Assembly: GCA_035695045.1 (NCBI GenBank)
Contig: DASSEX010000081.1
Location: 9,881-73,880, forward strand
Length of the DNA: 64,000 nt
Direction of reading: 5' to 3'
Source: Mycobacteriales bacterium
GTDB lineage: Bacteria > Actinomycetota > Actinomycetes > JAFAQI01
Shown here: piece by piece, positions 3,014-33,048 of the stretch
How positions within the stretch are numbered: position 1 is the first letter of the stretch
Layout: each line of letters starts with the position of its first letter
Program-made: the position numbers and the translations under genes
The notes under the pieces: model-generated
What the model was told of the DNA's origin: nothing
The model's input: the letters and a program-made list of their open reading frames with translations, nothing else
Database searches by the model: none

Positions 3014-4045
3014 CTAGGTCCGCCGCTTCCTGACCCGGCGCACCCAACGCGACGCAGTCCGACGCACGCGCAGCGCGAGAGACGGGGTCGCAGCGGGGAG
3101 CGCCGCCTCAGGGGCTGCCTCGACCGACTCGCGGGCCTCCCGAGCGGCCGTCTTGATGGATGACTGGGCGAGCGCCTCCGCGTGACCGTAGGTTGCGACG
3201 TAGTGCTGCCGAAGGTCGTCGAGCGCGCTTCTCCGGTCAGCCGTGTCGCCGGCCTCCTGGGTCAGGCCCAGCAGCTCCTGCCAGGTGGCCTCGGCCAGGT
3301 CGCGCAACCACGCCGGCACGTCGACGGCGTCCCAGCCCGCGGGCGCCCGACGCAGCGAGGGGTCGACGAGGTCATCCACCTCGGCCTGCGCATCCGGGCC
3401 CGCCGCCGCCAGCAGGTCGACGTTCAGCGACTGCTCGGCCGTCTTGAGCGCACCGCGCCAGTCGCGCAGTACGTCGTCGTACAGGATGTAGGCGCGGCGG
3501 GCGCCGCGGGTCTGGTACTCGGCGTGCAACATCATGTTCAGCCACCAGCCGAGCCGGGTGGCATCGCTGTGCTTGTCGCGGTCAGTAGTGCGGACGCTCG
3601 ACATCACCTCCGTCGGATGACGAAGGGGCGTCACGAGCAACGGCTGCACACCCAGCTCGCCCATGCACGTCAGCCACATCGGAAGAAACCATGCCGTGCG
3701 CGGATCCTTGACGACGACACGGTCCGCCTCGTCGAACTGCCACCCTGTCCAGGTCCGGCAGTAGCCGAGCTCGACCGGCTCGTCGAGGACACGGGCCGCG
3801 GCCGACCAGGCGGCCGGTCGGGCATCCAACAGGTCAACGCCGTACCTGAGCATCAGCTTCGCGTGGAAGTTGACCACCCAGCGAGGCTCACCGAAGCCAC
3901 GCGGATTGGTCTTGTTCGCCTCGACCTCGGGCTGCGGGACGTAGAAGCCGAGCCGATTGAACACGCCGGCCGTCAGGCTGGTGCCGCTTCGTCCGGCTCC
4001 GATCACGAGCACGAGCTCGCGTGGATCCTCCTCCGCAGCCGTCAT
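3014..4045 (-). CDS. sulfotransferase family protein (PAPS-dependent, P-loop)
   Basis: 343 aa. N-terminal LVLVIGAGRSGTSL 5'-PSB loop, and a fold resembling the actinobacterial Stf-type sulfotransferases. Confidence 0.8.
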   Translation of the reverse strand: MTAAEEDPRELVLVIGAGRSGTSLTAGVFNRLGFYVPQPEVEANKTNPRGFGEPRWVVNFHAKLMLRYGVDLLDARPAAWSAAARVLDEPVELGYCRTWTGWQFDEADRVVVKDPRTAWFLPMWLTCMGELGVQPLLVTPLRHPTEVMSSVRTTDRDKHSDATRLGWWLNMMLHAEYQTRGARRAYILYDDVLRDWRGALKTAEQSLNVDLLAAAGPDAQAEVDDLVDPSLRRAPAGWDAVDVPAWLRDLAEATWQELLGLTQEAGDTADRRSALDDLRQHYVATYGHAEALAQSSIKTAAREARESVEAAPEAALPAATPSLALRVRRTASRWVRRVRKRRT

Positions 4046-4081
4046 CGCGCGGTGATCATAGTCGAGGCGGCGAGCGCCTCG

Positions 4082-5239
4082 TCAGCTGACCGGAAGGCCG
4101 AGCTGACGGGCGATCAGCAGCCGCTGCACCTCGCTCGTGCCTTCACCGATCTCCAGGATCTTCGCGTCGCGCCAGTGACGTGCGACGGGGAACTCGTCCA
4201 TGAAGCCGTAGCCGCCGAAGACCTGCGTGGCGTCGCGCGCGTTGTCGACGGCGATCGTCGAGGAGTAGAGCTTGGCGATGGCGGCTTCACGCTTGAACGG
4301 CTGACCGCCGGCCATGCGGGCCGCGGCGTCGTAGTAGGCGAGTCGAGCGACGTGAGTCCGCATGTCCATGTCGGCGATCCGGAACGCCACCGCCTGGTTC
4401 TGACCGATCGGCCGCCCGAAGGCCTCGCGCTCCTTGGCGTACTTCACCGACTCATCCACGCAGGCCTGGGCAAGACCGACGGCCAGTGCGCTGATGGCGA
4501 TGCGACCCTCGTCGAGGGTGGACAGGAACTGCGCGTAGCCGCGACCGCGCTCACCCAGGACGTGGTCCGCCGGAACCTGGCAGTCCTGGAAGGCGAGCTC
4601 ACGGGTGTCAGAGGCATGCCAACCGACCTTGCGGTAGCTCTTCGATGCCGAGAAGCCCTCGCGCGGCACCGGCACCATCACGCTTGTGAGCTCGGGGCGT
4701 CCGTCCGGCCGCTCGCCGGTGCGGCACAGCACCGTCACGAGACGAGTGATGTCCGTGCCCGAGTTGGTGATGAACGCCTTCGTGCCGTTGATGACCCAGC
4801 TGTCGTCGACCAGGACGGCGCGCGTCGTCGGGTTGCCGGCGTCAGACCCGCCTCCCGGCTCGGTCAGCCCGAAGGCGGCCAGCGCCTCTCCTCGGCAGAG
4901 CGCGGGGAGCCACTCCTTCTTCTGCTCCTCCGTCCCGAAGGTGTAGATGGGCATTGACCCGAGCCCGACCGCGGCTTCCAGGGTGATGGCCACGGACGAG
5001 TCGGCCCGGGCGAGCTCCTCGATGGCAAGACAGAGCGCGAAGAAGTCGCCGCCCATGCCGCCGTACTGCTCCGGGAACGGAAGGCCGAACAGGCCCATCT
5101 CGCCCATCTGACGGATGACGTCGTACGGAAACCGGTGCTCGCGGTCGGCTGACTCGGCTTGCGGAGCGACCACGTCGCGGGCGAACTTCCCGACTACGGA
5201 CCGCAGCGCTTCATGCTCGTCGTCGAGCCGAAAATCCAT
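4082..5239 (-). CDS. acyl-CoA dehydrogenase (short/branched-chain, isovaleryl-CoA DH-like)
   Basis: 386 aa from the internal ATG (MDFRLDDEHEAL...). The ACAD fold runs from the N-terminal helix domain to a C-terminal ...RQLGLPVS. The ORF-track N-terminal extension from 5371 is discounted. Confidence 0.85.
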   Translation of the reverse strand: MDFRLDDEHEALRSVVGKFARDVVAPQAESADREHRFPYDVIRQMGEMGLFGLPFPEQYGGMGGDFFALCLAIEELARADSSVAITLEAAVGLGSMPIYTFGTEEQKKEWLPALCRGEALAAFGLTEPGGGSDAGNPTTRAVLVDDSWVINGTKAFITNSGTDITRLVTVLCRTGERPDGRPELTSVMVPVPREGFSASKSYRKVGWHASDTRELAFQDCQVPADHVLGERGRGYAQFLSTLDEGRIAISALAVGLAQACVDESVKYAKEREAFGRPIGQNQAVAFRIADMDMRTHVARLAYYDAAARMAGGQPFKREAAIAKLYSSTIAVDNARDATQVFGGYGFMDEFPVARHWRDAKILEIGEGTSEVQRLLIARQLGLPVS

Positions 5240-5306
5240 GACGTGATCGTGCCACGTGCACGCGCAGGCGGGCTGAGCGACTGTCGCTCCGCGATAGCAT
5301 CGAGCG

Positions 5307-8132
5307 GTGCCGACGCCGAGCGAGAGTTCGACCGTCGGCGGGCTCAGACCGGACGTCAGCGTCGTCGTCATCGCCTACAACGACGCTGCACGACTGCCCG
5401 AAGCCGTGGCGTCCGTCCTCGACCAGACCTTGCGTGCGCTCGAGGTCATCGTGGTCGACGACGCGTCGACGGACGGCACCTGGGACGTCGCGCAAGCATT
5501 GGCCGAAGCGCATCCCGACCGCGTGCGCGCGATCAGGTTGCCGGAGAACTCCGGCGGCTGCTCCCGACCCCGCAACACGGGGATCGATGCCGCGCAAGGC
5601 GACTACGTCATGTTTCTCGACAGTGACGACAGTCTCGAGCGGCACGCCGCGAAGAACCTGCTGCTGACCGCGGAGCGGACGGGTGCAGACCTCGTCTCCG
5701 GCCTGTGCGTTCGGGTCAACGTGACGAACGAGAACAAGCGAACCAGGTGGTACGCGCGGCTGTATGCCGAGCACGCGACCTACGACAGCATCCGGGACGC
5801 GCCCGAGCTTCTGTTCGACACGCTGTCGACCAACAAGCTCTACCGACGCGAGTTCCTCGACCGCAACGGCATCCGGTTTCCGGACGGTCTCCATTACGAG
5901 GACCTGCTGTTCAGCACCGAGGCCTATTGCACGGCGCAGCCGATCGCCATCCTGCCCGTCGAGGTCTACCGGTGGCACGTCGTCGAGGACGCCGCGACCG
6001 CGTCGATCAGCAACCGGCGCAACAACATCGCCAACTTTCGTGACCGGCTGCAGATTCACCAGCGGATCGATGCCTACCTGGTCGCGCGCGGATTCGACGA
6101 CCTGCGACCGATCAAGGACCGGAAGTTCATCCTGCAGGACCTCAAGCTCTACCTGACCGACCTGGCACGGCGCGACGCGACGTACCAAGAAGCCTGGTTG
6201 AACATGGCCGCCGACTACCTCGAAACGGTCTCCGACGAAGCGGTCGTGAGCGCCGGCCCGCTGGCGGCGGCCACCGCGTACCTCGTCCGCCGGCGGGACC
6301 TCGACGAGACTCTGCACGCTGCCGAACTGTGGATCCACGGGCGCCTGTCCGGCGGCCTGTGCCTCGACAGCGGCCGCGCCTACCTCACCGGGCGCTACCT
6401 CGAGGACGACCTCGGCCGGGAGCTGTTGGACGTCACCGCTCTGCACCTGCACGATGCACCGTTCAGCCGTCGCAACATGCGCAACCGCCTGGTGTCGATC
6501 GCCGGTGACCGGACCGCCGAGCTGCGGGGCGAGATCAACGACCCCCTCCGTGCCATCGACGCAGACGACGAGCTGTCCGCGACGCTCGAGCTGCGGACGG
6601 CCGACGGCAGGCATCGGGTCGACATCGCCCGCCCGCAGGTCGAGCTGACGGCCCAAGGCACCCTGACCTGGCGGGCTTCACTCGCGGCACGCCGGCGACC
6701 GCCGCGGATGCCGCCGAACGTGAAGTCGTGGGGACTGTGGATGACCCTGCACCACGGCGACAGCGTCAACGTCTCCCAGGTCATCTCGACGACGGACGTG
6801 ACCGCCGGACGCAGACTCCCGTGGAAAAGGTCCCCGTGGACGGGCCAGAGCCTGCTCTGGGTCGAGCGAGGTCCTGGCGACGGAGTGTGGCTCCGGGTCG
6901 AACGTGCCTCGAAGGCCTGGCGCCTGGCTGACCGGGTGTGGTCTCGCGTGCGCCGCTCCGGTGTGTACGGCGACCTTCGACGGCTGTTCTTGTCGGCGCG
7001 CAGCCGTGGCCTCAAGTCGCTCGTCTATCGATCGGTACTCGTCCGGCTCCCTGTCCGTCGCGGAACTGCCGTGTTCGAGAGCCAGCTCGGTCGCGTGTAC
7101 GCCGACAACCCGAAGTACGTCTACCGGGCGTTGCGATCCGCCGGCGACAACCGCCGGGTCGTGTGGTCGTACACCGAGAGCACTTCTGGATGGCCGCAGG
7201 ACGCGGTGCTGGTGAAGCGAGCGAGCTGGCGGTACTTCTACGAGCTCGCCCGCGCAGAGCTGTGGGTCGACAACCAAGGGTTCCCGCCAGGAGCGCCGAA
7301 GCGGCGCGGCACCAAGTACCTCCAGACGTGGCACGGGTCGCCGTACAAGGCCATGGGCTTCGACCAGCCACAGCTGCAGTTCGGTCCGGCGGACAAGCGC
7401 GCGGAGTTCGCCGCCGGCGTCGGTCGATGGACGCACTTCTGCGTGCAGAGCCCGTTCGCGGACGACACGTTCCGTCGGGCGTTCCGGCACTCGGCCAAGT
7501 CCCTGCCCAGTGGGTACCCGCGCAACGACCCGCTGCTGCGGTACGACGCGGCGGCCGTCAAGGACCTTCGCGCCCAGCTGGAACTTCCGGACGACCGGCA
7601 GATCGTGCTCTACGCACCGACGTTCCGCGACTCCGATCGGGTCACACGCACGCGGTCGGGTCTGCGGTTGAACCTCGCACGGCTGAGCGAGCTGGTCGGG
7701 GACCGCTGCTACTTGCTCGTCCGCGCGCACTACCTCGACCGGGGCAGCGTCCCGACGCGCTACTCGAGCTTCGCGCGCGACGTCTCGGACTATCCGGACA
7801 CGACCGAGCTGTTGCTGCTGGCAGACGGCCTGATCACGGACTACTCGTCGGTGATGTTCGACTACGCCCTCCTGCGCCGGCCGATGCTCTTCTACGCCTA
7901 CGACCTAGAGCTCTACAACCAGACCCGTGGCTCCTATTTCGACCTCGAAACCGAGGCGCCGGGCCCCGTCGTCAAGACCGAGGACGGGGTCGCCGAATGG
8001 CTGAGCGACTTCCGTACGCCGCACCTCGCATACGCGGAACGCCTCGAGCGGTTCGTCGACAAGTTCTGCACCTACGAGACGGGCCACGCGTCGGAAGATG
8101 TCGTGCGCGAGTTCTTCGGCGTCGGCACATGA
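5307..8132 (+). CDS. bifunctional glycosyltransferase family 2 / CDP-glycerol:poly(glycerophosphate) glycerophosphotransferase (TagF/TagB-like) fusion
   Basis: 941 aa. N-terminal GT2 signatures VSVVVIAYND...[11 protein letters not shown]...FLDSDD (DXD). C-terminal Glyphos_transf motifs YLQTWHGSPYKAMGFD and ITDYSSVMFDY. Confidence 0.85.
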   Translation: MPTPSESSTVGGLRPDVSVVVIAYNDAARLPEAVASVLDQTLRALEVIVVDDASTDGTWDVAQALAEAHPDRVRAIRLPENSGGCSRPRNTGIDAAQGDYVMFLDSDDSLERHAAKNLLLTAERTGADLVSGLCVRVNVTNENKRTRWYARLYAEHATYDSIRDAPELLFDTLSTNKLYRREFLDRNGIRFPDGLHYEDLLFSTEAYCTAQPIAILPVEVYRWHVVEDAATASISNRRNNIANFRDRLQIHQRIDAYLVARGFDDLRPIKDRKFILQDLKLYLTDLARRDATYQEAWLNMAADYLETVSDEAVVSAGPLAAATAYLVRRRDLDETLHAAELWIHGRLSGGLCLDSGRAYLTGRYLEDDLGRELLDVTALHLHDAPFSRRNMRNRLVSIAGDRTAELRGEINDPLRAIDADDELSATLELRTADGRHRVDIARPQVELTAQGTLTWRASLAARRRPPRMPPNVKSWGLWMTLHHGDSVNVSQVISTTDVTAGRRLPWKRSPWTGQSLLWVERGPGDGVWLRVERASKAWRLADRVWSRVRRSGVYGDLRRLFLSARSRGLKSLVYRSVLVRLPVRRGTAVFESQLGRVYADNPKYVYRALRSAGDNRRVVWSYTESTSGWPQDAVLVKRASWRYFYELARAELWVDNQGFPPGAPKRRGTKYLQTWHGSPYKAMGFDQPQLQFGPADKRAEFAAGVGRWTHFCVQSPFADDTFRRAFRHSAKSLPSGYPRNDPLLRYDAAAVKDLRAQLELPDDRQIVLYAPTFRDSDRVTRTRSGLRLNLARLSELVGDRCYLLVRAHYLDRGSVPTRYSSFARDVSDYPDTTELLLLADGLITDYSSVMFDYALLRRPMLFYAYDLELYNQTRGSYFDLETEAPGPVVKTEDGVAEWLSDFRTPHLAYAERLERFVDKFCTYETGHASEDVVREFFGVGT

Positions 8133-9328
8133 CCGCAGCTGCCGAAGAACGGTCGGCGCCAGAGTCGCGTCACCGGCGCAACATCTTCATCGTCGCCAAC
8201 AACATCGAGGAAGTCGGCGGGCTGCAACGCGTCGTGCACACGCTCGCCGAAGGCTTTGCCGAACGAGGGCACGCCGTCGAGCTGATCGGCATCTCCCCCG
8301 GCCCGCCCGGAGCGCGCATCGAGCCCGGGCGCGGTTACCAGACCATGACGCTCGGGCCCGCGGAGCCCGCTGAGTGGGTGCCCCGCGGGATACGCGCAAA
8401 GCTCCGGCCGGTCAAACAGGCGAAGGAACGCTTCCGCCGACGCGTCCATGCGCGAAACGTCGGTCGGTTGCAGGCACGGTTCGACCGCGTCGAAGACGGA
8501 GTCGTCATCGTCGGTCAGATCTGGGCGATGCAGTGGGTCGCCGACGCAGACACCCGACACCTGCGCGTCATCGGGATGAGCCACGAGTCCTACGAGGCCT
8601 CCCGCGGGCTGCTGCCCACGGCCATCGGGTCGACGCGATATCGGCGGATCATGCAGCTCTACCCGCCGATCGACGCCGTCCTGCTGCTCACGGAAGTGGA
8701 TGCGCGCAAGTTCGAACAACGCGGGCTGTGCAACGTCCAGGTGATGCACAACCCCCTTCCTCAGTGGCCCGACCAGGTGTCACCTCTCACCGACAAGCGG
8801 GTGGTCGCCATCGGCCGGCTCGAGCCGGAGAAGCGATACGACCGTCTGCTGGACGCATGGAAGATTGTCGCCACACGCCACCCCGGCTGGCGACTGGACA
8901 TTTACGGCGCCGGTAGCCTCGCCATGTCACTGCATGACCAGATCGAAGAGGCCGGACTCGTGGACAGCGCAGTGTTGCAAGGACCCACCAAGGATCCGTT
9001 CAGCGTTCTTCAGCGCGCTTCGGTCCTCGCGTTGTCCTCGGAGCAGGAAGGACTGCCGCTCGTGCTGGCGGAAGCCATGGCAACCGGCGTTCCCTGCGTG
9101 GCATTCGACTGCGTGCCAGGGATCCGCGAAATCATCCGCGACGGCGAGGACGGCCTGGTCGTGCGCAACAGGGACGTCGACGCCCTCGCGGACGGGATCT
9201 GCCGACTTATCGAGGACGAGCAGCTGCGCCGGTCCTTCGGATCACGCGGGCGGCACAACATCGAGCGTTTCCGCCTGGACCGGATCCTCGACCGGTGGGA
9301 GCAGCTTTTCGAGCAGGTGGACCGATGA
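8129..9328 (+). CDS. glycosyltransferase family 4 (GT-B, retaining)
   Basis: 399 aa from the ATG overlapping the upstream stop (ATGA). Contains the GT4 EX7E region EQEGLPLVLAEAMATGVPCVAFD. The long upstream extension given in the ORF track (6938..) is shadow reading. Confidence 0.85.
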   Translation: MTAAAEERSAPESRHRRNIFIVANNIEEVGGLQRVVHTLAEGFAERGHAVELIGISPGPPGARIEPGRGYQTMTLGPAEPAEWVPRGIRAKLRPVKQAKERFRRRVHARNVGRLQARFDRVEDGVVIVGQIWAMQWVADADTRHLRVIGMSHESYEASRGLLPTAIGSTRYRRIMQLYPPIDAVLLLTEVDARKFEQRGLCNVQVMHNPLPQWPDQVSPLTDKRVVAIGRLEPEKRYDRLLDAWKIVATRHPGWRLDIYGAGSLAMSLHDQIEEAGLVDSAVLQGPTKDPFSVLQRASVLALSSEQEGLPLVLAEAMATGVPCVAFDCVPGIREIIRDGEDGLVVRNRDVDALADGICRLIEDEQLRRSFGSRGRHNIERFRLDRILDRWEQLFEQVDR

Positions 9329-9789: not shown

Positions 9790-9799
9790 CGACGGAAGA

Positions 9800-11365: not shown

Positions 11366-11432
11366 CAAGCGGAAGCGTAGCGGCCCAGGCGTGCCCGACC
11401 GTGCACACCGCTGCGCTAGGGTCGCAGGCCCT

Positions 11433-12608: not shown

Positions 12609-12674
12609 CGCCCGGGCGATTCGCCTGCGCGAGGTGACGACTGCCCCTACCCTCAGCCGGAAGAGGGGGTCTCG

Positions 12675-13310: not shown

Positions 13311-13323
13311 GGCCGCGTTCCGG

Positions 13324-14241: not shown

Positions 14242-14250
14242 GGGTCCAGG

Positions 14251-15225: not shown

Positions 15226-15239
15226 CCCTCGATCCTGCC

Positions 15240-23964: not shown

Positions 23965-23969
23965 CCGGG

Positions 23970-24701: not shown

Positions 24702-27682
24702 GCGCCAACCTCATCACACGCGGCCCTCAGACCTGCGCACCGCTCGACGAGGAAGTCGGCGACGGCGGCCGCTGCGCGTCCTTGGTCGTACTCCGCGAAC
24801 CGCACCCGAGCAGCGGCCCGCAACGATGCGCTGTCGTGCCGCGTTCGCTCGAGATCGGCGAGCAAGGCCGCCAGCGCCTCGTCGTCGTGCACGACCGGGC
24901 CGGGGGCGGCCTCGGCGATGTCGACGTACGCCGGCGGCGCCGTTCCGTGCACCGTGCGCCCGATCTCGCAGCGGCAGCCGACGAGGATGACCGGCCGGTC
25001 GCGGAGCACGATGTCGAACATCGCCGGGTGATGGTCGGTGACGAGGACGTCGGCGGCAAGCAGCAACTGCTCGAGCGGCCCGTCGCCGAGACGGAGAACG
25101 CGCGCGCCTCCGAACGCGACCGCGGAGCCGACCTCGGCCGGCCGGTCGCAGTCCCGCAGGTGAAGCACGGCGAGGTCCTCGGGGCGCACCCCGACCGCCG
25201 CCCGGGCGGCGTGGACCGACGCCGCGTCGTCGTGGACCAGAGCGTCGTTACGCGGGAGTCCTACCGGCAACGTCTGCGCCGTGTGCCGGAACGCGCGCGC
25301 CAGCACGTCCTCGTCGTACGGCGCCCGCACGCACACCGCGTCCCACCGATCGACACTGCGGCGCAGCGCAAGCCGGTCGTCGTTGCTCGCCCGGCGCATC
25401 TGCGGGGCGTCGAAGCCGACCCACCGCAACGGGGTGAACCTCGGGATGTGCACGTACACGGTGCTCGGCGACTTCACCGTCTCGCGCGGGAATCCGCTGT
25501 CGTCGACCCATGCCTCCGCTCGAGCGAGAGCAGAGTAGTAGGCCCAGGAGCCATGCCTGACGAGGCGCACGTCCGTGGGGAACACGGTGGTGTCGCCGGC
25601 GTGCACCCAGATCGGCTCGATGGGCAAACGCCTTCGGCGGAGCTCGTCGAAGACGGCACGCGGGCTTCCGCCGAACGCTGCACCGTCCTCGCTCTGGAAC
25701 ACCACCGACCGCGGCCGGGTGCGGGCCGGCCGAAGGGCGCGAGCCAACACCTCCTCACGCACCCGCGGGTGCGCGGGGTGCCGGGCCAACGTCGCCGCCC
25801 GCCGGGCGGTCTGCCGGGCGCGTCGCAGACCGGGCGACCGGAGAACCCGCTGACCCGCCTTGTGTACCGCCTGTGCACTGCGTGTGCCCGGAACCCACTC
25901 GAGAGCGAGGTCCCCCTGGGGCGTGACGAGGGTCTGGAGGCGGTCGGCAGCGAACCGGCCGGCGAGGGGTCGACCGGACAGATGCAGCCCGTCCCAGTCG
26001 GCATTCCGGACGGTCAACCGGGACTCGTTCACCTCGCTGCCGACGGACAGCTGCAGCCGCAGGTCCCAGACCCGATCGACGAAGCCGAGCGCCCTGATGG
26101 TCTGTCTGGTGTCGACGGTTGCAGTCCACTCGATGTCGCCGGTGTCCGGTTCACGTCGCAGGTCGAGGACCGGCACAGAGCCCGAGCGACGGCCGCGCCG
26201 GGGGCGGGCGATGAGGCGGGCGGCGACAGGAGCCTCCGACGGGATCCGGCCGAGCTGGTTGAGCAGTCGCCCACGCAGCTCTAGCCGATGACCGTGCACC
26301 TGCAGCTGCGTCACCTCGTCATAGAGGTCGAGGGAGGGCAGGGCCAGCTCCTGGAACCCGAGCTCTGTGACGTCGAAGAACGGCGCATCCGCGGCGGCTT
26401 CCAGTCCACGTTCGTCCCAGAACACCCGACCGGACCGCTCCAGGAGCCTCGTCGAGAGCTTGCGTCCGTGCGCCACGTAGTCGATGGCGCCGAACAGGCC
26501 GGCCTCGTCGTCATGCAGGAGGTACCACCCGACGAGTGCCTGGAGAGGATGGACGCGGGCGAACGCGGCGGCATCCAGCGTTTCCAGATAGCTCCTTGCG
26601 ACTCGGCCGAACTCCTCGCGGAACGCCGAGTCTCGGAACGGCAGATCCGGCAGGTAGAGCACGAGGTCGTGACGCAAGAACTTCAGGTCCTTGTGGAGCT
26701 TCAGCTGCGTTGCACCATGCGCCCGGAACTGCTCATCGAGCAGGCGATGCACGCGGACGCGGTCCTCGAAGTTGCGCAGCTCGGATCTCCGGTTGGAGAT
26801 CGAGGGGGTGTCGAGCGACTCGACCACGTTCCATCGGTAGACGACGTCCGGCACCAAGGTGAACCGGCGTGCGAGGAGGTAGACCTCCCCCGAGAAGAGC
26901 AGGTCTTCGTAGTGGACGCCTTCCGGGAAGCGCAGCGCATTGCGTTGGAGGAAGTCACGTCGGTAGCACTTGTTGGTGGACAAGGTGTCGTACAGCAGGT
27001 CGGGGTTCTCGAGGATCGACTCGTACGTCGTCCGTCTCGTGTAGAGCCACCGGTACCACGGCGACACTGCGCCGCCCTTGCTCAGGTGGACCCTGTGGCA
27101 GAGCCCAGACGAGAAGTCCGCCTCGTCTGCCTCCGCGGCGGCGACGAGAGTCGCGCAGGCAGTTCGGGGAAGCTCGTCGTCACTGTCCAGGAACATGACG
27201 TAGCGTCCGCGAGCGATGTCGATCCCGGCGTTGCGGGGACGGCTGCAGCCACCGCTGTTCTCGGCGAGCCGCTCGACCCGAATGCGGGGGTCGGCCGCGG
27301 CCAGCTTCGCAGTTACGGTCGGCGTGGCGTCAGTGCTGGCGTCGTCGATGATCACGATCTCGAGGTCGGTCATCGTCTGGCGGCGGACCGACCGGACGGC
27401 CGTGTCGAGACGGTCCGCGTCGTTGTAGACGATCACGACCACGCTCAGGAGCGGCTCGGTCGCCCTCGAGGAACGGGACGATCGGACACGGACAGGAAGA
27501 ATTCGGGCGCTCCTTAGGTTCTTCGGGTGACAGTCTCGTTGCTCCGTTGGGACTGAAGCAGGCCCCTGCCCCCGCCGAAGGAAAAGATATGCGACTCCGA
27601 CTTGTGGCCGCCGCGATCGCCGTGGCGCTTCCGACCATGGGCCTCGTGGCCACCACTGCTCCCTCTGCCGGCGCGGCGACAT
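24698..27682 (-). CDS. bifunctional GT2 / TagF-like glycerophosphotransferase fusion, second paralog (TagF-like active-site motif degenerate)
   Basis: 994 aa as the ATG-initiated ORF. The GT2 region starts near residue 78 (LLSVVVIVYNDADRL...[11 protein letters not shown]...FLDSDD), so the true start may be an internal GTG near 27440. The C-terminal TagF-like region keeps VTDHHPAMFDI but reads YVHIPRFTPLRWVGFD where paralog 1 has the WHG motif. Confidence 0.75.
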   Translation of the reverse strand: MSPRRQREQWWPRGPWSEAPRRSRRPQVGVAYLFLRRGQGPASVPTEQRDCHPKNLRSARILPVRVRSSRSSRATEPLLSVVVIVYNDADRLDTAVRSVRRQTMTDLEIVIIDDASTDATPTVTAKLAAADPRIRVERLAENSGGCSRPRNAGIDIARGRYVMFLDSDDELPRTACATLVAAAEADEADFSSGLCHRVHLSKGGAVSPWYRWLYTRRTTYESILENPDLLYDTLSTNKCYRRDFLQRNALRFPEGVHYEDLLFSGEVYLLARRFTLVPDVVYRWNVVESLDTPSISNRRSELRNFEDRVRVHRLLDEQFRAHGATQLKLHKDLKFLRHDLVLYLPDLPFRDSAFREEFGRVARSYLETLDAAAFARVHPLQALVGWYLLHDDEAGLFGAIDYVAHGRKLSTRLLERSGRVFWDERGLEAAADAPFFDVTELGFQELALPSLDLYDEVTQLQVHGHRLELRGRLLNQLGRIPSEAPVAARLIARPRRGRRSGSVPVLDLRREPDTGDIEWTATVDTRQTIRALGFVDRVWDLRLQLSVGSEVNESRLTVRNADWDGLHLSGRPLAGRFAADRLQTLVTPQGDLALEWVPGTRSAQAVHKAGQRVLRSPGLRRARQTARRAATLARHPAHPRVREEVLARALRPARTRPRSVVFQSEDGAAFGGSPRAVFDELRRRRLPIEPIWVHAGDTTVFPTDVRLVRHGSWAYYSALARAEAWVDDSGFPRETVKSPSTVYVHIPRFTPLRWVGFDAPQMRRASNDDRLALRRSVDRWDAVCVRAPYDEDVLARAFRHTAQTLPVGLPRNDALVHDDAASVHAARAAVGVRPEDLAVLHLRDCDRPAEVGSAVAFGGARVLRLGDGPLEQLLLAADVLVTDHHPAMFDIVLRDRPVILVGCRCEIGRTVHGTAPPAYVDIAEAAPGPVVHDDEALAALLADLERTRHDSASLRAAARVRFAEYDQGRAAAAVADFLVERCAGLRAACDEVGA

Positions 27683-28578
27683 CGCCCGTGCTCTTCGGTC
27701 TGACAGACAAGTGGAAGGACCAGATCAGCGCCGACAACTCGCAACTGCATCTGACCGCCGGCGTGGTCGACCTGTTCCAGCAGTGGGTCGCCACCAGCAC
27801 GAAGCGCACGACGGTGAAGAACTGGATGAGCTGGGTCCGGGGCGCCAGCGGCGCGCCCGGTGGCGCTCCCATGCTGACCCTTCAGCCACCCACGTCCGCC
27901 TCTTTGAGCTCGATCAATGCCGGGCACTACGACGCGCAACTGCGCGCGTGGGCGCACACGATTGCGTCCTGGGGCCACCCGATGTTCGTGCGGCTGTTCC
28001 CGGAGATGAATCAGAAGTCGCACAGCTACTCGCCCGGCTACGGAAGCAACACCGCCGCACAGTTCCGGACGGCGTGGCGTCACGTGGTCACACTGATGCG
28101 CAACGCCGGCGCTCACAACATTGCCTTCATCTGGTGCCCGTACCGCGTCTACTCGACCTCGACGCCACTGAAGTCGGTGTGGCCCGGTGCTTCGTATGTC
28201 AACTGGGTCGGATTCGACGCCTACAACTACGACGACTCACACCATGCCTTCGCGTGGCCGTACGCACTGTTCTCGCCCACCGTCAAGGCGATCCGCAGCA
28301 TCGCCCCGTACAAGCCGCTCGTCATCGCCGAAGTTGGCACAAGGCCCGAGAGCCAGAAGCCGACCTGGATCTCCCGCTCCGTAACGGCCGCCCAGTCGGT
28401 CGGCGCGAAGGCCATGCTCTGGTTTGACGAGAGCGCGGAGTACAACTGGCGGCTCGATTCGGCGCCAAGTCCCTCGGTGATCAACGCAGCCAGGACAGCA
28501 CTGCACTCGTCCGCGATCACCTACGCCGGCAAGTGGTCGATCGCCCGGATCGACCAGCTCGTCTCGACGGGCAAGTAG
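27589..28578 (+). CDS. secreted glycoside hydrolase, GH26-like (beta-mannanase/endoglycanase fold)
   Basis: About 329 aa from MRLRL, with signal peptide MRLRLVAAAIAVALPTMGLVATTAPSAGAA. Candidate catalytic motifs are FVRLFPEMN (acid/base Glu) and VIAEVG (nucleophile Glu). Upstream RBS is GAAGGAAAAG. Confidence 0.6.
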   Translation: MRLRLVAAAIAVALPTMGLVATTAPSAGAATSPVLFGLTDKWKDQISADNSQLHLTAGVVDLFQQWVATSTKRTTVKNWMSWVRGASGAPGGAPMLTLQPPTSASLSSINAGHYDAQLRAWAHTIASWGHPMFVRLFPEMNQKSHSYSPGYGSNTAAQFRTAWRHVVTLMRNAGAHNIAFIWCPYRVYSTSTPLKSVWPGASYVNWVGFDAYNYDDSHHAFAWPYALFSPTVKAIRSIAPYKPLVIAEVGTRPESQKPTWISRSVTAAQSVGAKAMLWFDESAEYNWRLDSAPSPSVINAARTALHSSAITYAGKWSIARIDQLVSTGK

Positions 28579-28583
28579 GCGGA

Positions 28584-31415
28584 CTAACCGTTCGGCTGGG
28601 AGGCGGCGATCGTCGCGAGCGCCGCCTCCAGCAGCCGCTCCTGCCGCTCGTACTCCGCCCGGTTGTTCGCGGCCAGCGCAGCCTGGGCGCGCGCCTGGGC
28701 CTGCTGAGCGGCGGCGACAGCCTGGGCCAGTCGGGCGGACGGCGTCGACCCGTTGCCGACGGCGTCGGCCAGGGCGAGGTCGAGTGTCGGCTCGAACGCG
28801 ATCGTGCCACCGCGCGCCACGACGACGCGACGCAGGATCGGGAAGGACGTGCCGCCCGCGGCGCGGGAGTAGATCGGTTCGACCCAGATGACGTCACCGT
28901 CGACCGGGATCGGCTGCAGGTTGCCCAGGACGACTCGGGAGCCGCCGCCTCGCAACAGTGTCAGCTGCTGGGCCACGCCGGGATCCGACTCGATGTCGTT
29001 GCGGATCTGGCCCGGTCCCTCGACGCCCGCCGGAAGGGTCTGCAGCTGCATCCGGCCGTAGCCAGGCCCCGGATCCGAGCCGACCGAGAGGTAGGCCGTC
29101 ATGGTGCGTCCGTTCAGAGAAACGAACGACGTCGTGAGTGCCAGCTGCGTGCCGCCGGCGCCGGGAAGGCGTAGGTAGTAGGACGGCTGCGCGGCCGACC
29201 CCTTCATCGTCGGGTCGGACGGCACCAGCCAGAAGTCACTGCCGTTGTAGAACGAGCGCGGGTCGGTGACGTGGTAGCGCGCAAGCATCGTGCGCTGCAC
29301 GTTGAACAGGTCGCGCGGGTAGCGCAGATGCGCACGTACGTCGGAGGGGAGGGCAGCCGCCGGCCGGACCAGTCCCGGGAACGCCTTCATCCACGTCGCA
29401 AGAACGGGGTCGCGCCCGAGGCCGGTCTCGGTGTCCCACCGGTAGAGGTGCACGGTGCCGTCGTACGCGTCGACCGTCGCCTTCACCGAGTTGCGGATGT
29501 AGTTGATGCTCTGGTTCGACTGCGCCGACGACGAGCCGTTCGTGACATAGGTGTCCGACGCCGCCGCGGCAAGGTTCTGCTGCTGCGAGTAGGGCACCGA
29601 GTTGGCCGTGGTGTAACCGTCGACCACCCACAGCACCCGCCCGCCGGCTACGACGGGGTACGCCGCCCCGTCGACGGTGAGCCAGGGGGCGACCTGCTGC
29701 ACGCGCTGCCGCGGGTCGCGGATAGAGAGCAGGCGCGAATACTTGTTGATGCCCTTGGAGAACAGGATGTTCTTGTCGCCGAGCTGCCAGGCGAAGGCGA
29801 GGCGTCGCCAGAACGAGCCGATCCGGACACCGCCGAGTCCGTGGTAGGTGTTGGTGACCTGGCCGCTTCCGGTGGCCGGCCGGTCGAACTCGTGCGGCCG
29901 CGCACCGGGCGGAGCGCCGACGATGGAGTACGACGGCGAGCTCTGCCCGAAGTAGATGCGCGGTTCGTAGCTGCCGAGGCCTCCCGTGGGGGGGATGTCC
30001 GACTCCACGAAGTTGGGTGTTCCGCCGCGGAGATCATCGACAGGCGCAGCGACAACGCCGTAGCCATGCGTGTAGACGAGGTGCAGGTTGCTCCAGGTGC
30101 GCTGACCACTGGGCAGTCCGGACGGGTTCAGCTCACGCACAGCCAGCGCGACGTCACGCGTGGCACCACCCAGCGGGTAGCGGTCCGTGTCCAGTGTCGA
30201 CTTGAACCCGTAGAAGGCACGGACCTGCTGCAGCTGGGTGAACGTCGGCGACATCTGGTTGGGGTCGAGCAGCTGCGGCTGTGCCGCGGCCACCGCCGCC
30301 GACACCGCCGCTCCGGACATCTGCTGCGGAGACGCGGCCGCGCCCGTGGTGACGGTGTCCGACCCGATGCCGTAGCCGTATCTGGTCGCCACCAGGTCGC
30401 GGGCGATGGACAGCGCTTCGGCGTCCTGGGCGTCCGGCTTGACGTGATAGGTCTGCACGACCCAGGGCACGACCCCACCGAGCACCACGCCGCTGAGCGC
30501 CAGCGTCACGACCCCCGCGGCCGTCACCTTCCAGCTGCGGAAGGCGGCGTTGATGAAGAACAGCACCGCGAGGATGACGGCGATGACCAGCAGGATCAGC
30601 TTCGAAGGCAGCACGGCATGGATGTCGGTGTACGACGGGCCGGTGACGACGCCGCGGTTGGAGACCGCTGTCGCCAGGCGGTCGAGCCAGTAGCCGAACG
30701 CCTTCAGCAGTGCGAGAGCGCCGAGCAGCAGGCACAGGTGGACGCGCATCTCGGCGCGCAGCCGCGGCCGTTGACCACGTGGTCGAAAGCCGCCGTTGAG
30801 GTAACCCATCACCCCCAGGAGCACCAGGCACAGCAGCACGATGGTGAACACCGCACCGAGCGCGAAGCGATGCATCGGGTAGACGAACACGTAGTAGGAG
30901 TAGTCGCGGTGGAACTGCGGGTCCTTGACTCCGAACGACGTCGCGTTGCGCCATTGCAGCCACAGCGGCCACTGCCGGGCTGCCCGGGACCCCAGCCATA
31001 TGCCGGCGACCAGGGCTGCGACGACCGTCACCAGGTGCCGGCGCGGGTAGACCAGCCGCCCGTAGCGAAGGCGCACCGAGAACCGCGTCGTCGGGGCGTC
31101 GCCGCCGTACGGTGTGTGCCGGTGCAGCGCGAAGAGGTTCACCGCGACGGCCAACGCGGTCGCCCCGCCGAAGACGGCGAACATCACGATCTGCGTCAGC
31201 AGCCGCCGTGAGTAGACCGACGACTCGTGCAACGAGCCGAACCACAGCCAGTTGGTGTAGAGCGAAACCACCGTGTTGACGACGGCGTACAGGACCGCGA
31301 CGACGACGACGAGCACGAAGAGCGGGCGGACCTTGCGCAACGTCGCCCGGATCGGGGCCTTGGGCCGGACCGGCGCCTCCACCTCACGGCTCTCGGATGG
31401 TGCGGCGGTCCTCAC
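28584..31415 (-). CDS. UPF0182 family large membrane protein
   Basis: 943 aa. The N-terminal TM bundle carries the family hallmark YTNWLWFGSLHESSVYSRRLLTQIVMF, followed by a large Gly/Tyr/Trp-rich extracytoplasmic domain. From memory it matches the mycobacterial Rv3193c-type UPF0182 proteins. Confidence 0.7.
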   Translation of the reverse strand: MRTAAPSESREVEAPVRPKAPIRATLRKVRPLFVLVVVVAVLYAVVNTVVSLYTNWLWFGSLHESSVYSRRLLTQIVMFAVFGGATALAVAVNLFALHRHTPYGGDAPTTRFSVRLRYGRLVYPRRHLVTVVAALVAGIWLGSRAARQWPLWLQWRNATSFGVKDPQFHRDYSYYVFVYPMHRFALGAVFTIVLLCLVLLGVMGYLNGGFRPRGQRPRLRAEMRVHLCLLLGALALLKAFGYWLDRLATAVSNRGVVTGPSYTDIHAVLPSKLILLVIAVILAVLFFINAAFRSWKVTAAGVVTLALSGVVLGGVVPWVVQTYHVKPDAQDAEALSIARDLVATRYGYGIGSDTVTTGAAASPQQMSGAAVSAAVAAAQPQLLDPNQMSPTFTQLQQVRAFYGFKSTLDTDRYPLGGATRDVALAVRELNPSGLPSGQRTWSNLHLVYTHGYGVVAAPVDDLRGGTPNFVESDIPPTGGLGSYEPRIYFGQSSPSYSIVGAPPGARPHEFDRPATGSGQVTNTYHGLGGVRIGSFWRRLAFAWQLGDKNILFSKGINKYSRLLSIRDPRQRVQQVAPWLTVDGAAYPVVAGGRVLWVVDGYTTANSVPYSQQQNLAAAASDTYVTNGSSSAQSNQSINYIRNSVKATVDAYDGTVHLYRWDTETGLGRDPVLATWMKAFPGLVRPAAALPSDVRAHLRYPRDLFNVQRTMLARYHVTDPRSFYNGSDFWLVPSDPTMKGSAAQPSYYLRLPGAGGTQLALTTSFVSLNGRTMTAYLSVGSDPGPGYGRMQLQTLPAGVEGPGQIRNDIESDPGVAQQLTLLRGGGSRVVLGNLQPIPVDGDVIWVEPIYSRAAGGTSFPILRRVVVARGGTIAFEPTLDLALADAVGNGSTPSARLAQAVAAAQQAQARAQAALAANNRAEYERQERLLEAALATIAASQPNG

Positions 31416-32179
31416 GGCTTGTCCTCTTCCTCGTCGTCGTCCACGTCGGTGTCCGCGCGATAGTGCTCGAGCACGTCGTCCATCGGGCCGTCCGCGACCT
31501 TGCGCCCGCCCTTGAGGTAGATGCCGCGTTCACAGAACCGCCGCAGGTCGTTCTCGTTGTGCGACACCATCACGACCGTGCGACCTTGGCTGAGGAGGTA
31601 CTCCATCACACGGTAGGACTTGCGTTTGAACCGTCGGTCACCGACGGCCATGACCTCGTCGACCAGCAGGATCGGCTCCTCCAGCCGGGTGACGACCGAG
31701 AAGCCGAGTCGCGACTTCATGCCGCTCGAATAGTGTCGGAGCGGCGTGTTCATGAAGCCTTCCAGCTCCGCCCACTTGACGATGCGGTTGTACTTCGCGT
31801 CGATCTGCCGCCGCGAGAACCCGTGCAGGGATCCGAGCAGGTAGACGTTGTCACGGCCGGTCAGCTCCGCGTTGAAACCCGCGTTGAGCTCGAGCATGGC
31901 GCCGACGCCACCGTTGACCCACACCTCGCCCTCGTCCGGCATCAACACGCCGGCGATCAACCGGAGGAGCGTGCTCTTGCCGGATCCGTTGCGGCCGATG
32001 AGTCCGACGGCCTCCCCCTGACGGACGCTGAACGAGACGTTCCTCAGCGCCCAGAACGTGTTCGGAGCGGTGATCGTGGCCTTACGGACGACGAAGTCCT
32101 GCAGCTTGAGCCGCCGCCGCCGGGTGACGGCGAAGTTGATCCCGACGTTCGACACGTTGATGACGTCCGGCACGCTCAC
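31412..32179 (-). CDS. tagH: ABC transporter ATP-binding protein, TagH/Wzt-like (glycopolymer export)
   Basis: 255 aa from the GTG overlapping the permease stop (GTGA). Contains Walker A GRNGSGKST, the ABC signature YSSGMKSRL and Walker B ILLVDE. Confidence 0.85.
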   Translation of the reverse strand: MSVPDVINVSNVGINFAVTRRRRLKLQDFVVRKATITAPNTFWALRNVSFSVRQGEAVGLIGRNGSGKSTLLRLIAGVLMPDEGEVWVNGGVGAMLELNAGFNAELTGRDNVYLLGSLHGFSRRQIDAKYNRIVKWAELEGFMNTPLRHYSSGMKSRLGFSVVTRLEEPILLVDEVMAVGDRRFKRKSYRVMEYLLSQGRTVVMVSHNENDLRRFCERGIYLKGGRKVADGPMDDVLEHYRADTDVDDDEEEDKP

Positions 32180-33048
32180 AGCTCCTTGAGCACGTGCCGC
32201 TCGAGCGTGATGAACGTCCACCAGCCGACGACGAAGAACAGGATCGCACCGACGCACGACACGAGGAACTGCGTCAGAAGGGTCCCCGCCGGGATCATGT
32301 TCGGGTACCAGACCGCGCGGTTGAGCTGCAGGATGCCGACGAGCGGGTTGAGCTGGTAGATCAGCGCCAACTTTCCGTGCAGCCGGCTCGACGGGTAGAG
32401 CACGGGCGACAGGTAGAACATCACCCGCAGCACCACGCGCAGGATCTTGGACACGTCGCGCAACAGCGCGTTCAGCGACGCGAGCATCAGTCCGAGGCCG
32501 ACGACGAGAAGCACCTCGACGAGGAACGCGAGCGGCAGCCACACGATGTAGCGACTGGGAAACTGGCCGTACAGCACACCCACGAGAAACACCACGGGGA
32601 GGCTGAGGAGGTACTCCGCCCCCTGCTCGCCGACGGACGCGAGCGGATAGATCTCCCTCGGCAACGTGACGGTGCGCACCAGGCCGGCGTTGCTGCGCAG
32701 CGAACCGGCCGCCTGCGACAGCGTGCCGTTGAAGAACAGCCACGGCATGATCGCCGAGGCGATGAACAGCGGGTAGTGCGGCATGCCGAACCGAGCGACC
32801 CGCCCGAAGATCAGCCAGTAGACGGCGACGAGCAGCGTCGGCTCGAGAAGCGACCAGGCGTAGCCCAGGAAGGACTCGCGGTACTGCACCTTGAGACCGC
32901 GCGCGATGAGCTCATAGAGGACGTTGGAGCGCCGCCGGATCTGGTTGATCCGCGCGACCGGGCTGCCACCCAGCAGCCGACCACGTTCGTAGTCCCACCA
33001 GACGCGCCACTCGTTGAGGAGCCCGGGCGGCTGCTCGACCTGCGTCAA
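32176..33048 (-). CDS. tagG: ABC-2 type transporter permease, TagG/Wzm-like
   Basis: 290 aa with 6 TM helices; ABC-2 family layout, immediately upstream of the ATPase. Confidence 0.85.
   Translation of the reverse strand: MTQVEQPPGLLNEWRVWWDYERGRLLGGSPVARINQIRRRSNVLYELIARGLKVQYRESFLGYAWSLLEPTLLVAVYWLIFGRVARFGMPHYPLFIASAIMPWLFFNGTLSQAAGSLRSNAGLVRTVTLPREIYPLASVGEQGAEYLLSLPVVFLVGVLYGQFPSRYIVWLPLAFLVEVLLVVGLGLMLASLNALLRDVSKILRVVLRVMFYLSPVLYPSSRLHGKLALIYQLNPLVGILQLNRAVWYPNMIPAGTLLTQFLVSCVGAILFFVVGWWTFITLERHVLKEL

Follow-up and report, generated by a model that had tools for sequence, protein, structure and literature searches.

A polymorphic actinobacterial locus predicted to specify a glycosylated, probably sulfated glycerol-phosphate wall polymer

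Here, we describe a 64-kb stretch of DNA (the window; ~70% GC) from an uncultured soil actinobacterium, available from NCBI as a third-party annotation (TPA) metagenome-assembled genome (MAG) named ‘Mycobacteriales bacterium’, in which genes for the assembly and export of an envelope glycopolymer lie in three blocks between purK and accA3. We interpret them as a polymorphic locus whose product is a poly(glycerol phosphate) wall polymer, glycosylated and probably sulfated, made with CDP-glycerol formed from dihydroxyacetone phosphate (DHAP) via sn-glycerol-1-phosphate, and would give this interpretation an even chance of being correct. The observations from which it starts are direct ones – membership of protein families and folds, the status of catalytic motifs, the packing of operons, and conservation and variability across relatives. 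The predicted system would consist of two modules. Module A would contain a large fusion protein with a family 2 glycosyltransferase (GT2) part and a TagF domain (fusion 1), a family 4 glycosyltransferase (GT4), a GtrA-family protein, two sulfotransferases, a GT2 of 546 aa (GT2-546), and a second fusion protein (fusion 2); module B would contain an NTP-transferase, a glycerol-1-phosphate dehydrogenase (G1PDH)-like protein, a small CDP-alcohol phosphotransferase, and a GT2 of 286 aa (GT2-286), plus a nearby TagGH-type exporter. The first four genes of module B form an operon, referred to here as the cassette.

Genes were delimited by frame analysis of GC content at the third codon position (GC3) – the start codons of some housekeeping genes being approximate – and were identified with Pfam and NCBIfam. 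An alignment of G1PDH-like proteins provided 80 metagenomic loci in which homologs of the window proteins were located, and each survey count covers the loci in which the flanking DNA was long enough to be scored. An earlier note on this DNA had listed about 20 polymer genes in three blocks, and hidden Markov model (HMM) searches confirmed the layout and nearly every gene that it named, although 14–15 is a more credible number. The blocks are separated as it described, by birA, accD5, and accE5 and by genes for an acyl-CoA dehydrogenase (ACAD), a methylcrotonyl-CoA carboxylase (MCC)-beta-like carboxyltransferase, and 3-hydroxy-3-methylglutaryl-CoA (HMG-CoA) lyase, as well as by an adenylate cyclase and a bPH gene. 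The overall assignment to teichoic-acid-like glycopolymer assembly and export also survives, in that the Glyphos_transf and ABC-2 exporter identifications withstand HMM, PDB-sequence, and fold tests. The locus is the machinery of neither arabinogalactan nor lipoarabinomannan (LAM).

Fusion 1 (5307–8132, + strand; 941 aa), which is 100% identical to HET6818444.1, combines a GT2 domain (PF00535, E 2e-37) with a Glyphos_transf domain (PF04464, E 4e-102) that scores 342 bits against a gathering cutoff of 22.1 and spans HMM positions 5–365 of 367. Its C-terminal 360 residues match Staphylococcus epidermidis TagF with an E value of 8e-77 and 33–34% identity, and it is nearer to glycerol-phosphate (GroP) than to ribitol-phosphate enzymes, both in NCBIfam (TarF 248 bits, TarL 111 bits) and in a PDB sequence search (TagF 262 bits, TarL 110 bits); this closer relationship to TarF/TagF than to TarL predicts that it transfers glycerol phosphate from CDP-glycerol. 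Both catalytic histidines, identified from the S. epidermidis TagF mutant entries 3L7J and 3L7M, are present (H676 in QTWHG and H808 in RAHYL) and invariant in a 41-sequence alignment, and the YAPTFR and TDYSS motifs are there too. An AlphaFold2 (AF2) model built with 41 homologs (pLDDT 89.1, pTM 0.84) has a GT-A domain at residues 17–225, a helical linker at 241–344, a beta-sandwich at 352–533, three helices at 536–576, and a TagF GT-B domain at 584–937. Foldseek superposes the C-terminus of this model on TagF (3L7J; TMt 0.83, rmsd 3.7 Å, 389 columns) and aligns its first ~575 residues with full-length RmlT and TarS (540–580 columns) and with TarP (TMt about 0.8); the GT-A part has PDB sequence matches to the TarS/TarP/RmlT group with E values of 1e-19 to 5e-20. 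As modeled, fusion 1 is a wall teichoic acid (WTA)-type glycosyltransferase joined to an intact WTA-type GroP polymerase, an architecture that suggests coupled polymerization and glycosylation. The sugar may have an in-chain role instead of serving as a decoration.

This architecture is common, with more than 1,600 homologs that include proteins of Streptomyces, Actinomadura, Actinoallomurus, and Embleya; GT2–TagF fusions of about 940 aa abound in actinomycetes, and the homologs are named ‘bifunctional glycosyltransferase/CDP-glycerol:glycerophosphate glycerophosphotransferase’ by NCBI. When genome contigs were scanned with fusion 1, the matches were all GT2 domains of Firmicutes and Bacteroidota that are unrelated to it. 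Residues 5–105 of PDB entry 3L7I align with residues 18–119 of fusion 1, within its GT2 part and including a DADD motif, which suggests that the GT2+TagF arrangement is already present in the archetypal TagF; in the crystal-structure chains that were matched, this N-terminal stretch of S. epidermidis TagF is not visible.

The window encodes two paralogs of the TarS/RmlT-like part of fusion 1, and all three proteins retain the FLDSDD (DxD) and YED motifs; their middle domains have no Pfam match at E ≤ 1, and were settled by AF2 and Foldseek. Fusion 2 (24698–27442, − strand; 914 aa; PF00535, E 6e-32) was correctly recognized previously as a second GT2/TagF fusion, but its TagF-like domain is degenerate and lacks both catalytic histidines. 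QTWHG has become HIPRF, with Arg at the position of the first catalytic His, TDYSS has become TDHHP, and a deletion of ~38 aa takes out YAPTFR...RxHYL including the second catalytic His. The domain is still recognizable (PF04464, E 7e-43, 147 bits, split match) and the gene is coding-like, with a GC3 of 0.86. The same changes occur in the partial homologs P0307 and P0310 (53% and 45% identity, respectively), and the nearest full-length relatives (40–43% identity) have canonical motifs. From its motifs, fusion 2 is best read as a TarS-like glycosyltransferase with a catalytically dead TagF-like domain. In this genome only, it is the first gene of the cassette operon, overlapping the NTP-transferase gene by 4 bp.

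The other paralog, GT2-546 (16583–18223, − strand; PF00535, E 2e-33), consists of a GT-A domain, linker, and beta domain, and corresponds to the N-terminal two-thirds of the fusions (43–50% identity, with FLDSDD and LYED motifs) without the TagF domain; it is kept in the related loci L001, L018, and L020. Its gene, with birA 9 bp downstream of it, is one of five successive − strand genes separated by gaps of no more than 11 bp, and looks co-transcribed with them. The fold of these TarS/RmlT-like modules and their fusion to TagF suggest that they glycosylate the polyol of a polyol-phosphate chain.

Fusion 1 is followed on the + strand by the genes for GT4 (8129–9328; GT-B, retaining; Pfam Glycos_transf_1, E 5e-38), the start of which overlaps the fusion 1 stop (ATGA), and for a GtrA-family small membrane protein (9295–9789; PF04138, E 1.6e-23), a putative polyprenyl-phosphate-sugar flippase. 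Both of the sulfotransferases proposed earlier are upheld. The one encoded at 11391–12608 (+ strand) is a Sulfotransfer_3 protein by Pfam (PF13469, E 3e-45), for which the closest NCBIfam model is the carbohydrate sulfotransferase NoeE (75 bits, below cutoff), and it is kept at 72% identity in L018. The other, of 343 aa (ST343; 3014–4045, − strand), is 100% identical to ‘hypothetical protein VFH66_14535 [Mycobacteriales bacterium]’ and has no Pfam, NCBIfam, or PDB sequence match, so that its identification comes from its homologs, a loop motif, and its fold. Homologs at 45–55% identity carry PF13469 and some are called sulfotransferase by NCBI; a GxGRSGTS loop, of the type that binds 3′-phosphoadenosine-5′-phosphosulfate (PAPS), is invariant across 38 sequences; and the top ~33 Foldseek PDB matches of the AF2 model (pLDDT 91.3) are sulfotransferases, headed by TPST, the CurM/OLS sulfotransferase domains, Stf1, and Stf9 (probability 1.0, TM 0.4–0.5). 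The model thus presents ST343 as a divergent PAPS-type sulfotransferase. The two proteins share by BLASTP a P-loop match only (E 0.04), neither has a signal peptide, and ST343 homologs adjoin loci with both cassette and TagF (L031 and L096). The ST343 gene immediately precedes purK, which has the same orientation, at a distance of 22 bp, lies 36 bp downstream of the ACAD gene, and looks co-transcribed with these housekeeping genes. Hardly any intergenic DNA separates the genes of two divergent pairs, MCC-beta/Sulfotransfer_3 and GT2-546/accD5.

The dehydrogenase, cytidylyltransferase, and CDP-alcohol phosphotransferase genes, the first of which had been called a polyol-phosphate dehydrogenase, are not TarJ, TarI, or TagD and belong to a distinct module; as judged from gene neighborhoods, the cassette is a conserved actinobacterial operon that is usually accompanied by TagG/TagH and mostly not by TagF. 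All of its genes are on the − strand. The LicC/IPCT-type NTP-transferase (23970–24701; 243 aa; PF00483, E 6e-13) has as its best PDB matches the LicC CTP:phosphocholine cytidylyltransferase (1jyk, E 2e-14), 4jd0, and 6pd1. The G1PDH-like protein (22927–23964; 345 aa; Fe-ADH_2 family, PF13685, E 7e-33) matches NCBIfam NF002022 over its full length (E 1e-72), with 245 bits against a cutoff of 413. Its similarity to the solved archaeal G1PDH enzymes of M. jannaschii and Pyrobaculum (E 3e-42 and 5e-41) compares with values of about 1e-10 for glycerol dehydrogenases in the PDB sequence search, and its homologs are annotated as G1PDH by JGI; the top PDB match is 3ce9, deposited as ‘glycerol dehydrogenase’. 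The small CDP-alcohol phosphotransferase (22155–22946; 263 aa; PF01066, E 9e-6, 26.6 bits against a cutoff of 22) is best matched in the PDB by the DIPPS-like AF2299 (4o6m, E 3e-7), and an NCBIfam IPCT/DIPPS enzyme matches both it and the NTP-transferase. Its signature, DCSDGELARW-x8-GIYLDRFGH (residues ~98–123), has seven of the eight expected residues, with His aligned to the fourth Asp of AF2299; this His is kept in 67 of 70 homologs, indicating a distinct subfamily and not a defect. The last gene of the cassette encodes GT2-286 (21298–22158; PF00535, E 4e-12).

Across the survey the NTP-transferase gene is directly upstream of the G1PDH-like gene wherever this could be scored (57/57 loci), the small CDP-alcohol phosphotransferase gene is downstream of it in 55 of 62, and a 286-aa-type GT2 gene comes next after that in 37 of 47; of the 28 loci with at least 4 kb downstream, 19 also have a TagG+TagH pair. 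Cultured carriers of cassette genes include Thermostaphylospora chromogena, Microbispora, and Streptomyces. No biochemical characterization of a G1PDH/cytidylyltransferase/CDP-alcohol module came up in literature searches. In one locus (L019:9282–13288; ENA ERZ25039522 contig_20299, 3.57 Mb) the NTP-transferase and G1PDH-like genes lie among ATP-synthase genes, a placement that suggests that the cassette occupies different chromosomal sites in different actinobacteria; many genes in this stretch are in fragments, probably as a result of long-read frameshifts, and it was set aside from inference.

The window exporter is encoded on the − strand by genes for a TagH/Wzt-class ABC-2 exporter ATPase (31412–32173; PF00005, ABC_tran) and a TagG/Wzm/KpsM-class permease (32176–33048; PF01061, ABC2_membrane, E 2e-16), set apart from the cassette by fusion 2, a gene for a GH26-like protein, and a UPF0182 gene. 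No TagD (CTP_transf_like, PF01467) was found among the open reading frames (ORFs) scanned in the 64 kb, which also contain no TagO, TagA, TagB, or LCP genes; these statements cover the window and not the remaining genome.

In the pathway that we propose, the G1PDH-like enzyme would reduce DHAP to sn-glycerol-1-phosphate and the LicC-type NTP-transferase would convert this to CDP-glycerol, with which module B would probably feed TagF because the window lacks TagD. The small CDP-alcohol phosphotransferase could place glycerol phosphate onto a membrane-bound (lipid-linked) acceptor glycosylated by GT2-286, and the TagF domain of fusion 1, working on the inner membrane face, would use CDP-glycerol to polymerize GroP on a lipid-linked primer. 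Sugars would be added to the chain by the TarS/RmlT-like modules (the fusion 1 N-terminus, fusion 2, and GT2-546) and GT4, and the cytoplasmic PAPS-type sulfotransferases would sulfate it. The finished lipid-linked polymer would then be exported by the TagGH-type ABC-2 transporter, with GtrA and the GH26-like enzyme contributing extracytoplasmic modification or trimming. The priming (TagO/TagA-like) enzymes and the LCP ligases that would attach the polymer to peptidoglycan are presumably encoded elsewhere. In this scheme we infer the substrates, the stereochemistry, the sulfation, the cooperation of modules A and B, and the attachment to the wall.

The earlier description of the locus as ancient and tightly integrated holds for its position but not for its content, which differs between close relatives. 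The gene order recurs in L018, a JGI contig with a block 1 that matches the window gene for gene (fusion 1 67% identical, housekeeping genes 73–91%), and the order TagF–GT4–GtrA is kept both there and in L100. Assembly GCA_035690365.1, represented by L001 and L100 (the latter in DASSKP010000028.1), has retained the backbone, with housekeeping identities of 80–96% (in L100, HMG-CoA lyase 96% and MCC-beta 88%), and the cassette, which is 92–94% identical, but it has a different block 1 and has deleted fusion 2. Between MCC-beta and purK, L100 has a different block 1 (L100:4958–19654) that encodes DUF6077 (683 aa), GtrA, GT4, a TagF-only protein (400 aa, with 60% identity to the fusion 1 TagF domain), Sulfotransfer_3, Sulfotransfer_2 (633 aa), and Sulfotransfer_3 proteins, and continues with ACAD, a 737-aa GT2–TagF protein, a Sulfotransfer_3-like protein, and a GT2 with a TarS_linker; four sulfotransferases (one Sulfotransfer_2 and three of Sulfotransfer_3 type) thus lie among its TagF genes. 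In L001 the 2.77 kb that contains fusion 2 is reduced to about 50 bp, and the last ~10 codons of fusion 2 remain before the NTP-transferase start, which identifies this as a deletion. In L020, where the G1PDH-like protein is 94% identical, the 3′ end of the gene for a flavin mononucleotide (FMN)-dependent dehydrogenase runs directly into a different TagG/TagH pair (only 26% and 39% identical) and then the cassette, so that the 8.4-kb segment TagG–TagH–UPF0182–GH26–fusion 2 is replaced there. By analogy with O-antigen and capsule loci, in which the site is conserved and the content turns over, this is a polymorphic surface-polymer locus. The junction upstream of the NTP-transferase gene is a variable spot (window 24698–27494, L001:9090–9270, and L020:1–2700).

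Several points weigh against a single sn-1-based wall polymer, beginning with the general one that everything proposed for this organism derives from sequence and predicted structure and not from chemistry or genetics. The substrate of the G1PDH-like protein is putative, as its score lies below the NCBIfam cutoff (245 vs 413 bits), and so is the use of sn-1 units here, since characterized TagF uses CDP-glycerol from sn-glycerol-3-phosphate. The polymer is a presumed substrate of the sulfotransferases, and adjacency in this region does not always mean functional linkage. The secreted GH26-like protein (27589–28578, + strand; signal peptide, no lipobox) matches PF02156 weakly and in part (E 1.3e-6, 28 bits, HMM positions 141–242 of 311) and has no NCBIfam match. 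The exporter is assigned at class level only, in that NCBIfam TagH models (184 and 175 bits) and galactan Wzt (163 bits) all score the TagH-like protein below their cutoffs, and the TagG-like protein has weak KpsM and Wzm matches. A TagF domain lies within 10 kb of the cassette in only 6 of the 80 loci, and elsewhere the cassette has a large phosphotransferase of its own, so modules A and B may be independent. This larger CDP-alcohol phosphotransferase (about 530–620 aa, with the canonical fourth Asp) is encoded upstream on the same strand in at least 19 of 33 long loci (for example L003:6922–9180 and L033:6526–8391, with at least 17 further loci), is often followed by DUF5941, and has LCP genes nearby in 12 of the 33; together with the small enzyme it could form a TagF-independent priming or polymerizing pair. 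The window has no large CDP-alcohol phosphotransferase, DUF5941, or LCP gene.

The main rival explanation, which we regard as possible although somewhat unlikely, is that the two modules make two products. Module A would synthesize a classical WTA-like polymer with sn-3 CDP-glycerol from a TagD encoded elsewhere, and module B would be self-contained and independent of TagF and LtaS, its CDP-alcohol phosphotransferase installing or polymerizing sn-glycerol-1-phosphate on a glycolipid or lipid carrier to give a lipoteichoic acid (LTA)-like polymer, a GroP-glycolipid, or a GroP decoration donor that is exported by its own ABC-2 transporter. The behavior of the cassette in most other genomes favors such autonomy: TagF is missing within 10 kb in 74 of the 80 loci, and in 10 of the 14 with at least 5 kb on both sides, TagGH regularly follows the cassette (in L020 it adjoins its own TagGH), and other lineages have the second, larger CDP-alcohol phosphotransferase ahead of it and LCP genes flanking it. 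LTA also contains sn-glycerol-1-phosphate, and LTA-making actinobacteria are without LtaS (PMC3196553; PMC7086022). Against two products, the TarS-like fusion 2 is translationally coupled to the cassette through the 4-bp overlap, the 64 kb contain no TagD, the large CDP-alcohol phosphotransferase that is a possible polymerase elsewhere is absent from the window, and TagF occurs with the cassette in the other 4 of the 14 well-flanked loci, which is above expectation for unrelated functions.

We consider it quite improbable that the cassette makes another CDP-alcohol – a CDP-polyol, a CDP-inositol-like compound, or CDP-2-glycerol, the intermediate of the pneumococcal Gtp1/Gtp2 route – and that the product is a capsule or exopolysaccharide with phospho-alcohol side groups. 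The G1PDH-like score below the NCBIfam equivalog cutoff and the label of 3ce9 would fit such a substrate, LicC-family enzymes accept diverse phospho-alcohols, IPCT/DIPPS is among the NCBIfam matches of both the NTP-transferase and the phosphotransferase, and capsules too use ABC-2 exporters, as the weak KpsM match recalls. However, the similarity to archaeal G1PDH exceeds that to glycerol dehydrogenases by about 30 orders of magnitude, a kinase for free glycerol is missing from the operon, the intact TagF domain is nearest to GroP transferases and argues for a glycerol-phosphate polymer, and the presence of LCP genes next to the cassette in other taxa speaks for attachment to the wall. Very little credence is given to the view that there is no single locus, just unrelated neighbors in a permissive region with fusion 2, the GH26-like gene, the beta-propeller lipoprotein gene, and DUF2269 partly decaying or irrelevant. 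Clearly unrelated housekeeping genes are indeed mixed with the glycopolymer genes, the TagF active site of fusion 2 is gone and a relative has deleted the gene, and UPF0182 and the lipoprotein do not accompany the cassette elsewhere; but many genomes retain the TagF–GT4–GtrA and NTP-transferase–G1PDH–CDP-alcohol phosphotransferase–GT2 sub-operons, homologs at 45–53% identity still have the degenerate TagF-like domain, fusion 2 has a coding-like GC3, and sulfotransferases recur with TagF genes.

Several known systems come close to the locus or to its parts. Fusion 1 resembles TagF of S. epidermidis and Bacillus subtilis (3L7I; PF04464) in sequence, fold, catalytic His, YAPTFR, and TDYSS, and differs in having a complete TarS/RmlT-like module – GT-A, linker, and beta-sandwich – ahead of the TagF domain. 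Relative to the Bacillus/Staphylococcus WTA pathway, the window lacks TagD, TagB, TagA, and TagO, and the TagF residues of fusion 2 are lost. The N-terminus of fusion 1 resembles TarS and TarP of S. aureus and RmlT of L. monocytogenes in fold and DxD motif; those enzymes are free-standing and decorate poly(ribitol phosphate), whereas here the module occurs in three forms, joined to a polymerase in fusion 1, joined to a dead polymerase domain in fusion 2, and free in GT2-546. The order of GT-A followed by a TagF-like domain in one polypeptide is shared with the Gram-negative capsule polymerases CslB, Cps1B, Cps12B, and Ccs2, which combine glycosyl and phosphoryl-alcohol transfer (PMC5974469), and Cps3D (PDB 8QOY) is a detectable homolog of fusion 1 (sequence E 1.5e-23, Foldseek E 1e-21). 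These capsule polymerases build in-chain poly(oligosaccharide phosphate) capsules and often have tetratricopeptide repeat (TPR) domains, whereas the GT-A domain of fusion 1 resembles side-chain decorators, no TPR was seen in it, and the similarity is far below that to TagF.

For the cassette, the IPCT/DIPPS pathway of archaea and hyperthermophiles, with AF2299 (4O6M, 4MND), has the same two steps of a cytidylyltransferase followed by a membrane CDP-alcohol phosphotransferase; here these are encoded by two separate genes, the fourth Asp is replaced by His, and they are coupled to a G1PDH-like protein, a GT2, and an ABC-2 exporter. A Streptomyces block with araM, nucleotidyltransferase, CDP-alcohol phosphatidyltransferase, GT2, tagG, and tagH genes contains the same families in synteny, and was annotated as teichoic-acid related in a 2026 synteny study on the basis of synteny and annotation (PMC13118837); it differs from the window, where fusion 2, the GH26-like gene, and UPF0182 separate the exporter from the cassette. 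The 80 surveyed loci show this operon to be spread across soil actinobacteria. Streptomyces tagGH genes matter for WTA-related phenotypes (PMC10269677). The wps-1 cluster of Actinoplanes missouriensis likewise combines glycopolymer genes with a GH26-family enzyme and with two sulfotransferases that belong to different families; its product, a sulfated exopolysaccharide, is predicted and unverified (PMC13390465). It is Wzx/Wzy-dependent and has no TagF or CDP-alcohol enzymes, whereas the window locus has an ABC transporter and a product predicted to contain phosphate.

Polymers of this composition had been called poorly described in these bacteria, which is true of their genetics and enzymology but not of their chemistry: actinomycete teichoic acids have been catalogued chemically for decades, with hardly any of the enzymes behind them known. 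Glycosylated poly(glycerol phosphate) WTA, and LTA without LtaS, are made by actinomycetes such as Streptomyces hygroscopicus, and how LtaS-less actinobacteria make poly(glycerol phosphate) LTA is an open question (PMC3196553). The components of the locus all come from known families, an annotation already exists for most of them, and the chemistry of the polymers is known, so the locus is not categorically new. What is new at a finer level is the module of G1PDH-like, LicC-type, and atypical CDP-alcohol phosphotransferase proteins as a likely source and handler of glycerol phosphate; the conserved operon is a candidate for supplying glycerol-phosphate units of sn-1 stereochemistry independently of TagD and LtaS. 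New too are the TarS-like modules, which form a series in which the TagF domain is active, dead, or missing and in whose fusions polymerization and glycosylation seem physically coupled, the recurrent sulfotransferases, and the serotype-like variability inside a housekeeping backbone. Sulfotransferases among TagF genes predict sulfated wall polymers, and sulfated polymers in actinomycetes are so far genetic predictions only (PMC13390465).

A broader proposal, which we put forward as speculative and unlikely, is that many actinobacteria make GroP envelope polymers without TagD or LtaS, and often without TagF, through CDP-sn-1-glycerol, supplied by a bacterial G1P dehydrogenase together with a LicC-type cytidylyltransferase, and ABC-2 export, with sulfation in the present case; CDP-alcohol phosphotransferases, of the small Asp-to-His type and with their larger canonical partner where present, would prime or polymerize GroP on lipid. 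If true, such a route would explain sn-1-type poly(glycerol phosphate) in LtaS-less actinobacteria, and sulfated teichoic acids would join the known wall polymers. The serotype-like behavior of a fixed site with exchangeable content could be relevant to phage–host interactions in soil actinobacteria. All of these meanings are read from sequence, and the gene families themselves are ordinary.

Two further proteins are less closely tied to the polymer. UPF0182 (28584–31415, − strand; PF03699, E 4e-242) had been counted as a polymer gene, but the family is universal in Actinobacteria, has been linked to FtsH/YccA-dependent membrane-protein quality control (bioRxiv 10.1101/2025.11.14.688347), and occurs in none of the 80 cassette loci outside this lineage. 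The 4-bp overlap between its start and the TagH stop, seen both in the window (31412–31415) and in L001 (5267–5270), is probably incidental. A role as a polymer-export partner was rejected in view of the FtsH literature and its absence from other cassette loci, and UPF0182 is most likely part of the backbone and not of the polymer machinery. The YncE-like beta-propeller lipoprotein (20103–21305, + strand; PF21783, E 4e-29; lipobox LTAC) is beside the cassette only in L001 and L020 and not in the other 78 loci, and its link to the polymer is uncertain. The GH26-like protein has an ortholog in L001 that is 72% identical.

The backbone begins with a chorismate-binding enzyme, purE, and purK at the start of the window, before position 3014, and continues with ACAD (4082–5239, − strand; Pfam/NCBIfam) between ST343 and fusion 1, the MCC-beta-like carboxyltransferase (9800–11398), and, beyond the Sulfotransfer_3 gene, DUF2269 and HMG-CoA lyase (13324–14241, − strand). 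The adenylate cyclase, bPH_2, and birA genes follow in that order before GT2-546, accD5 and accE5 lie between GT2-546 and the lipoprotein gene, and the FMN-dependent dehydrogenase and accA3 genes come after the TagG-like gene; from 36 to 64 kb the window is housekeeping. ACAD, the MCC-beta-like carboxyltransferase, and HMG-CoA lyase are scattered singly among the polymer blocks and form no operon, and the best NCBIfam matches of ACAD are not to isovaleryl-CoA dehydrogenase, so that a ‘leucine-catabolism’ label is putative.

Genes are tightly packed, with a largest intergenic gap of 146 bp and frequent 4-bp start/stop overlaps, and the lack of an integrase, transposase, tRNA, or GC shift reported earlier was borne out. 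No integrase or transposase domain was found among the window ORFs scanned, and there is no compositional break, GC being 0.687 in polymer genes and 0.702 in housekeeping genes and GC3 0.81–0.93 throughout. ARAGORN called one tRNA-Arg(GCG) of 94 nt (14644–14737, − strand) inside the adenylate-cyclase ORF, and an Rfam scan of the window returned nothing; the call was rejected as a probable false positive, since it lies within an ORF that is intact in relatives and has no Rfam support. After accA3, the interval 36244–37753 has an ambiguous coding signal on both strands, and its ORFs at 36575–37753 (+ strand) and 36601–36981 (− strand) have no Pfam match and a high GC content at codon positions 1 and 2. 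Three seemingly conserved ORF clusters (unk334, unk277, and unk496) proved to be antisense shadows of known genes.

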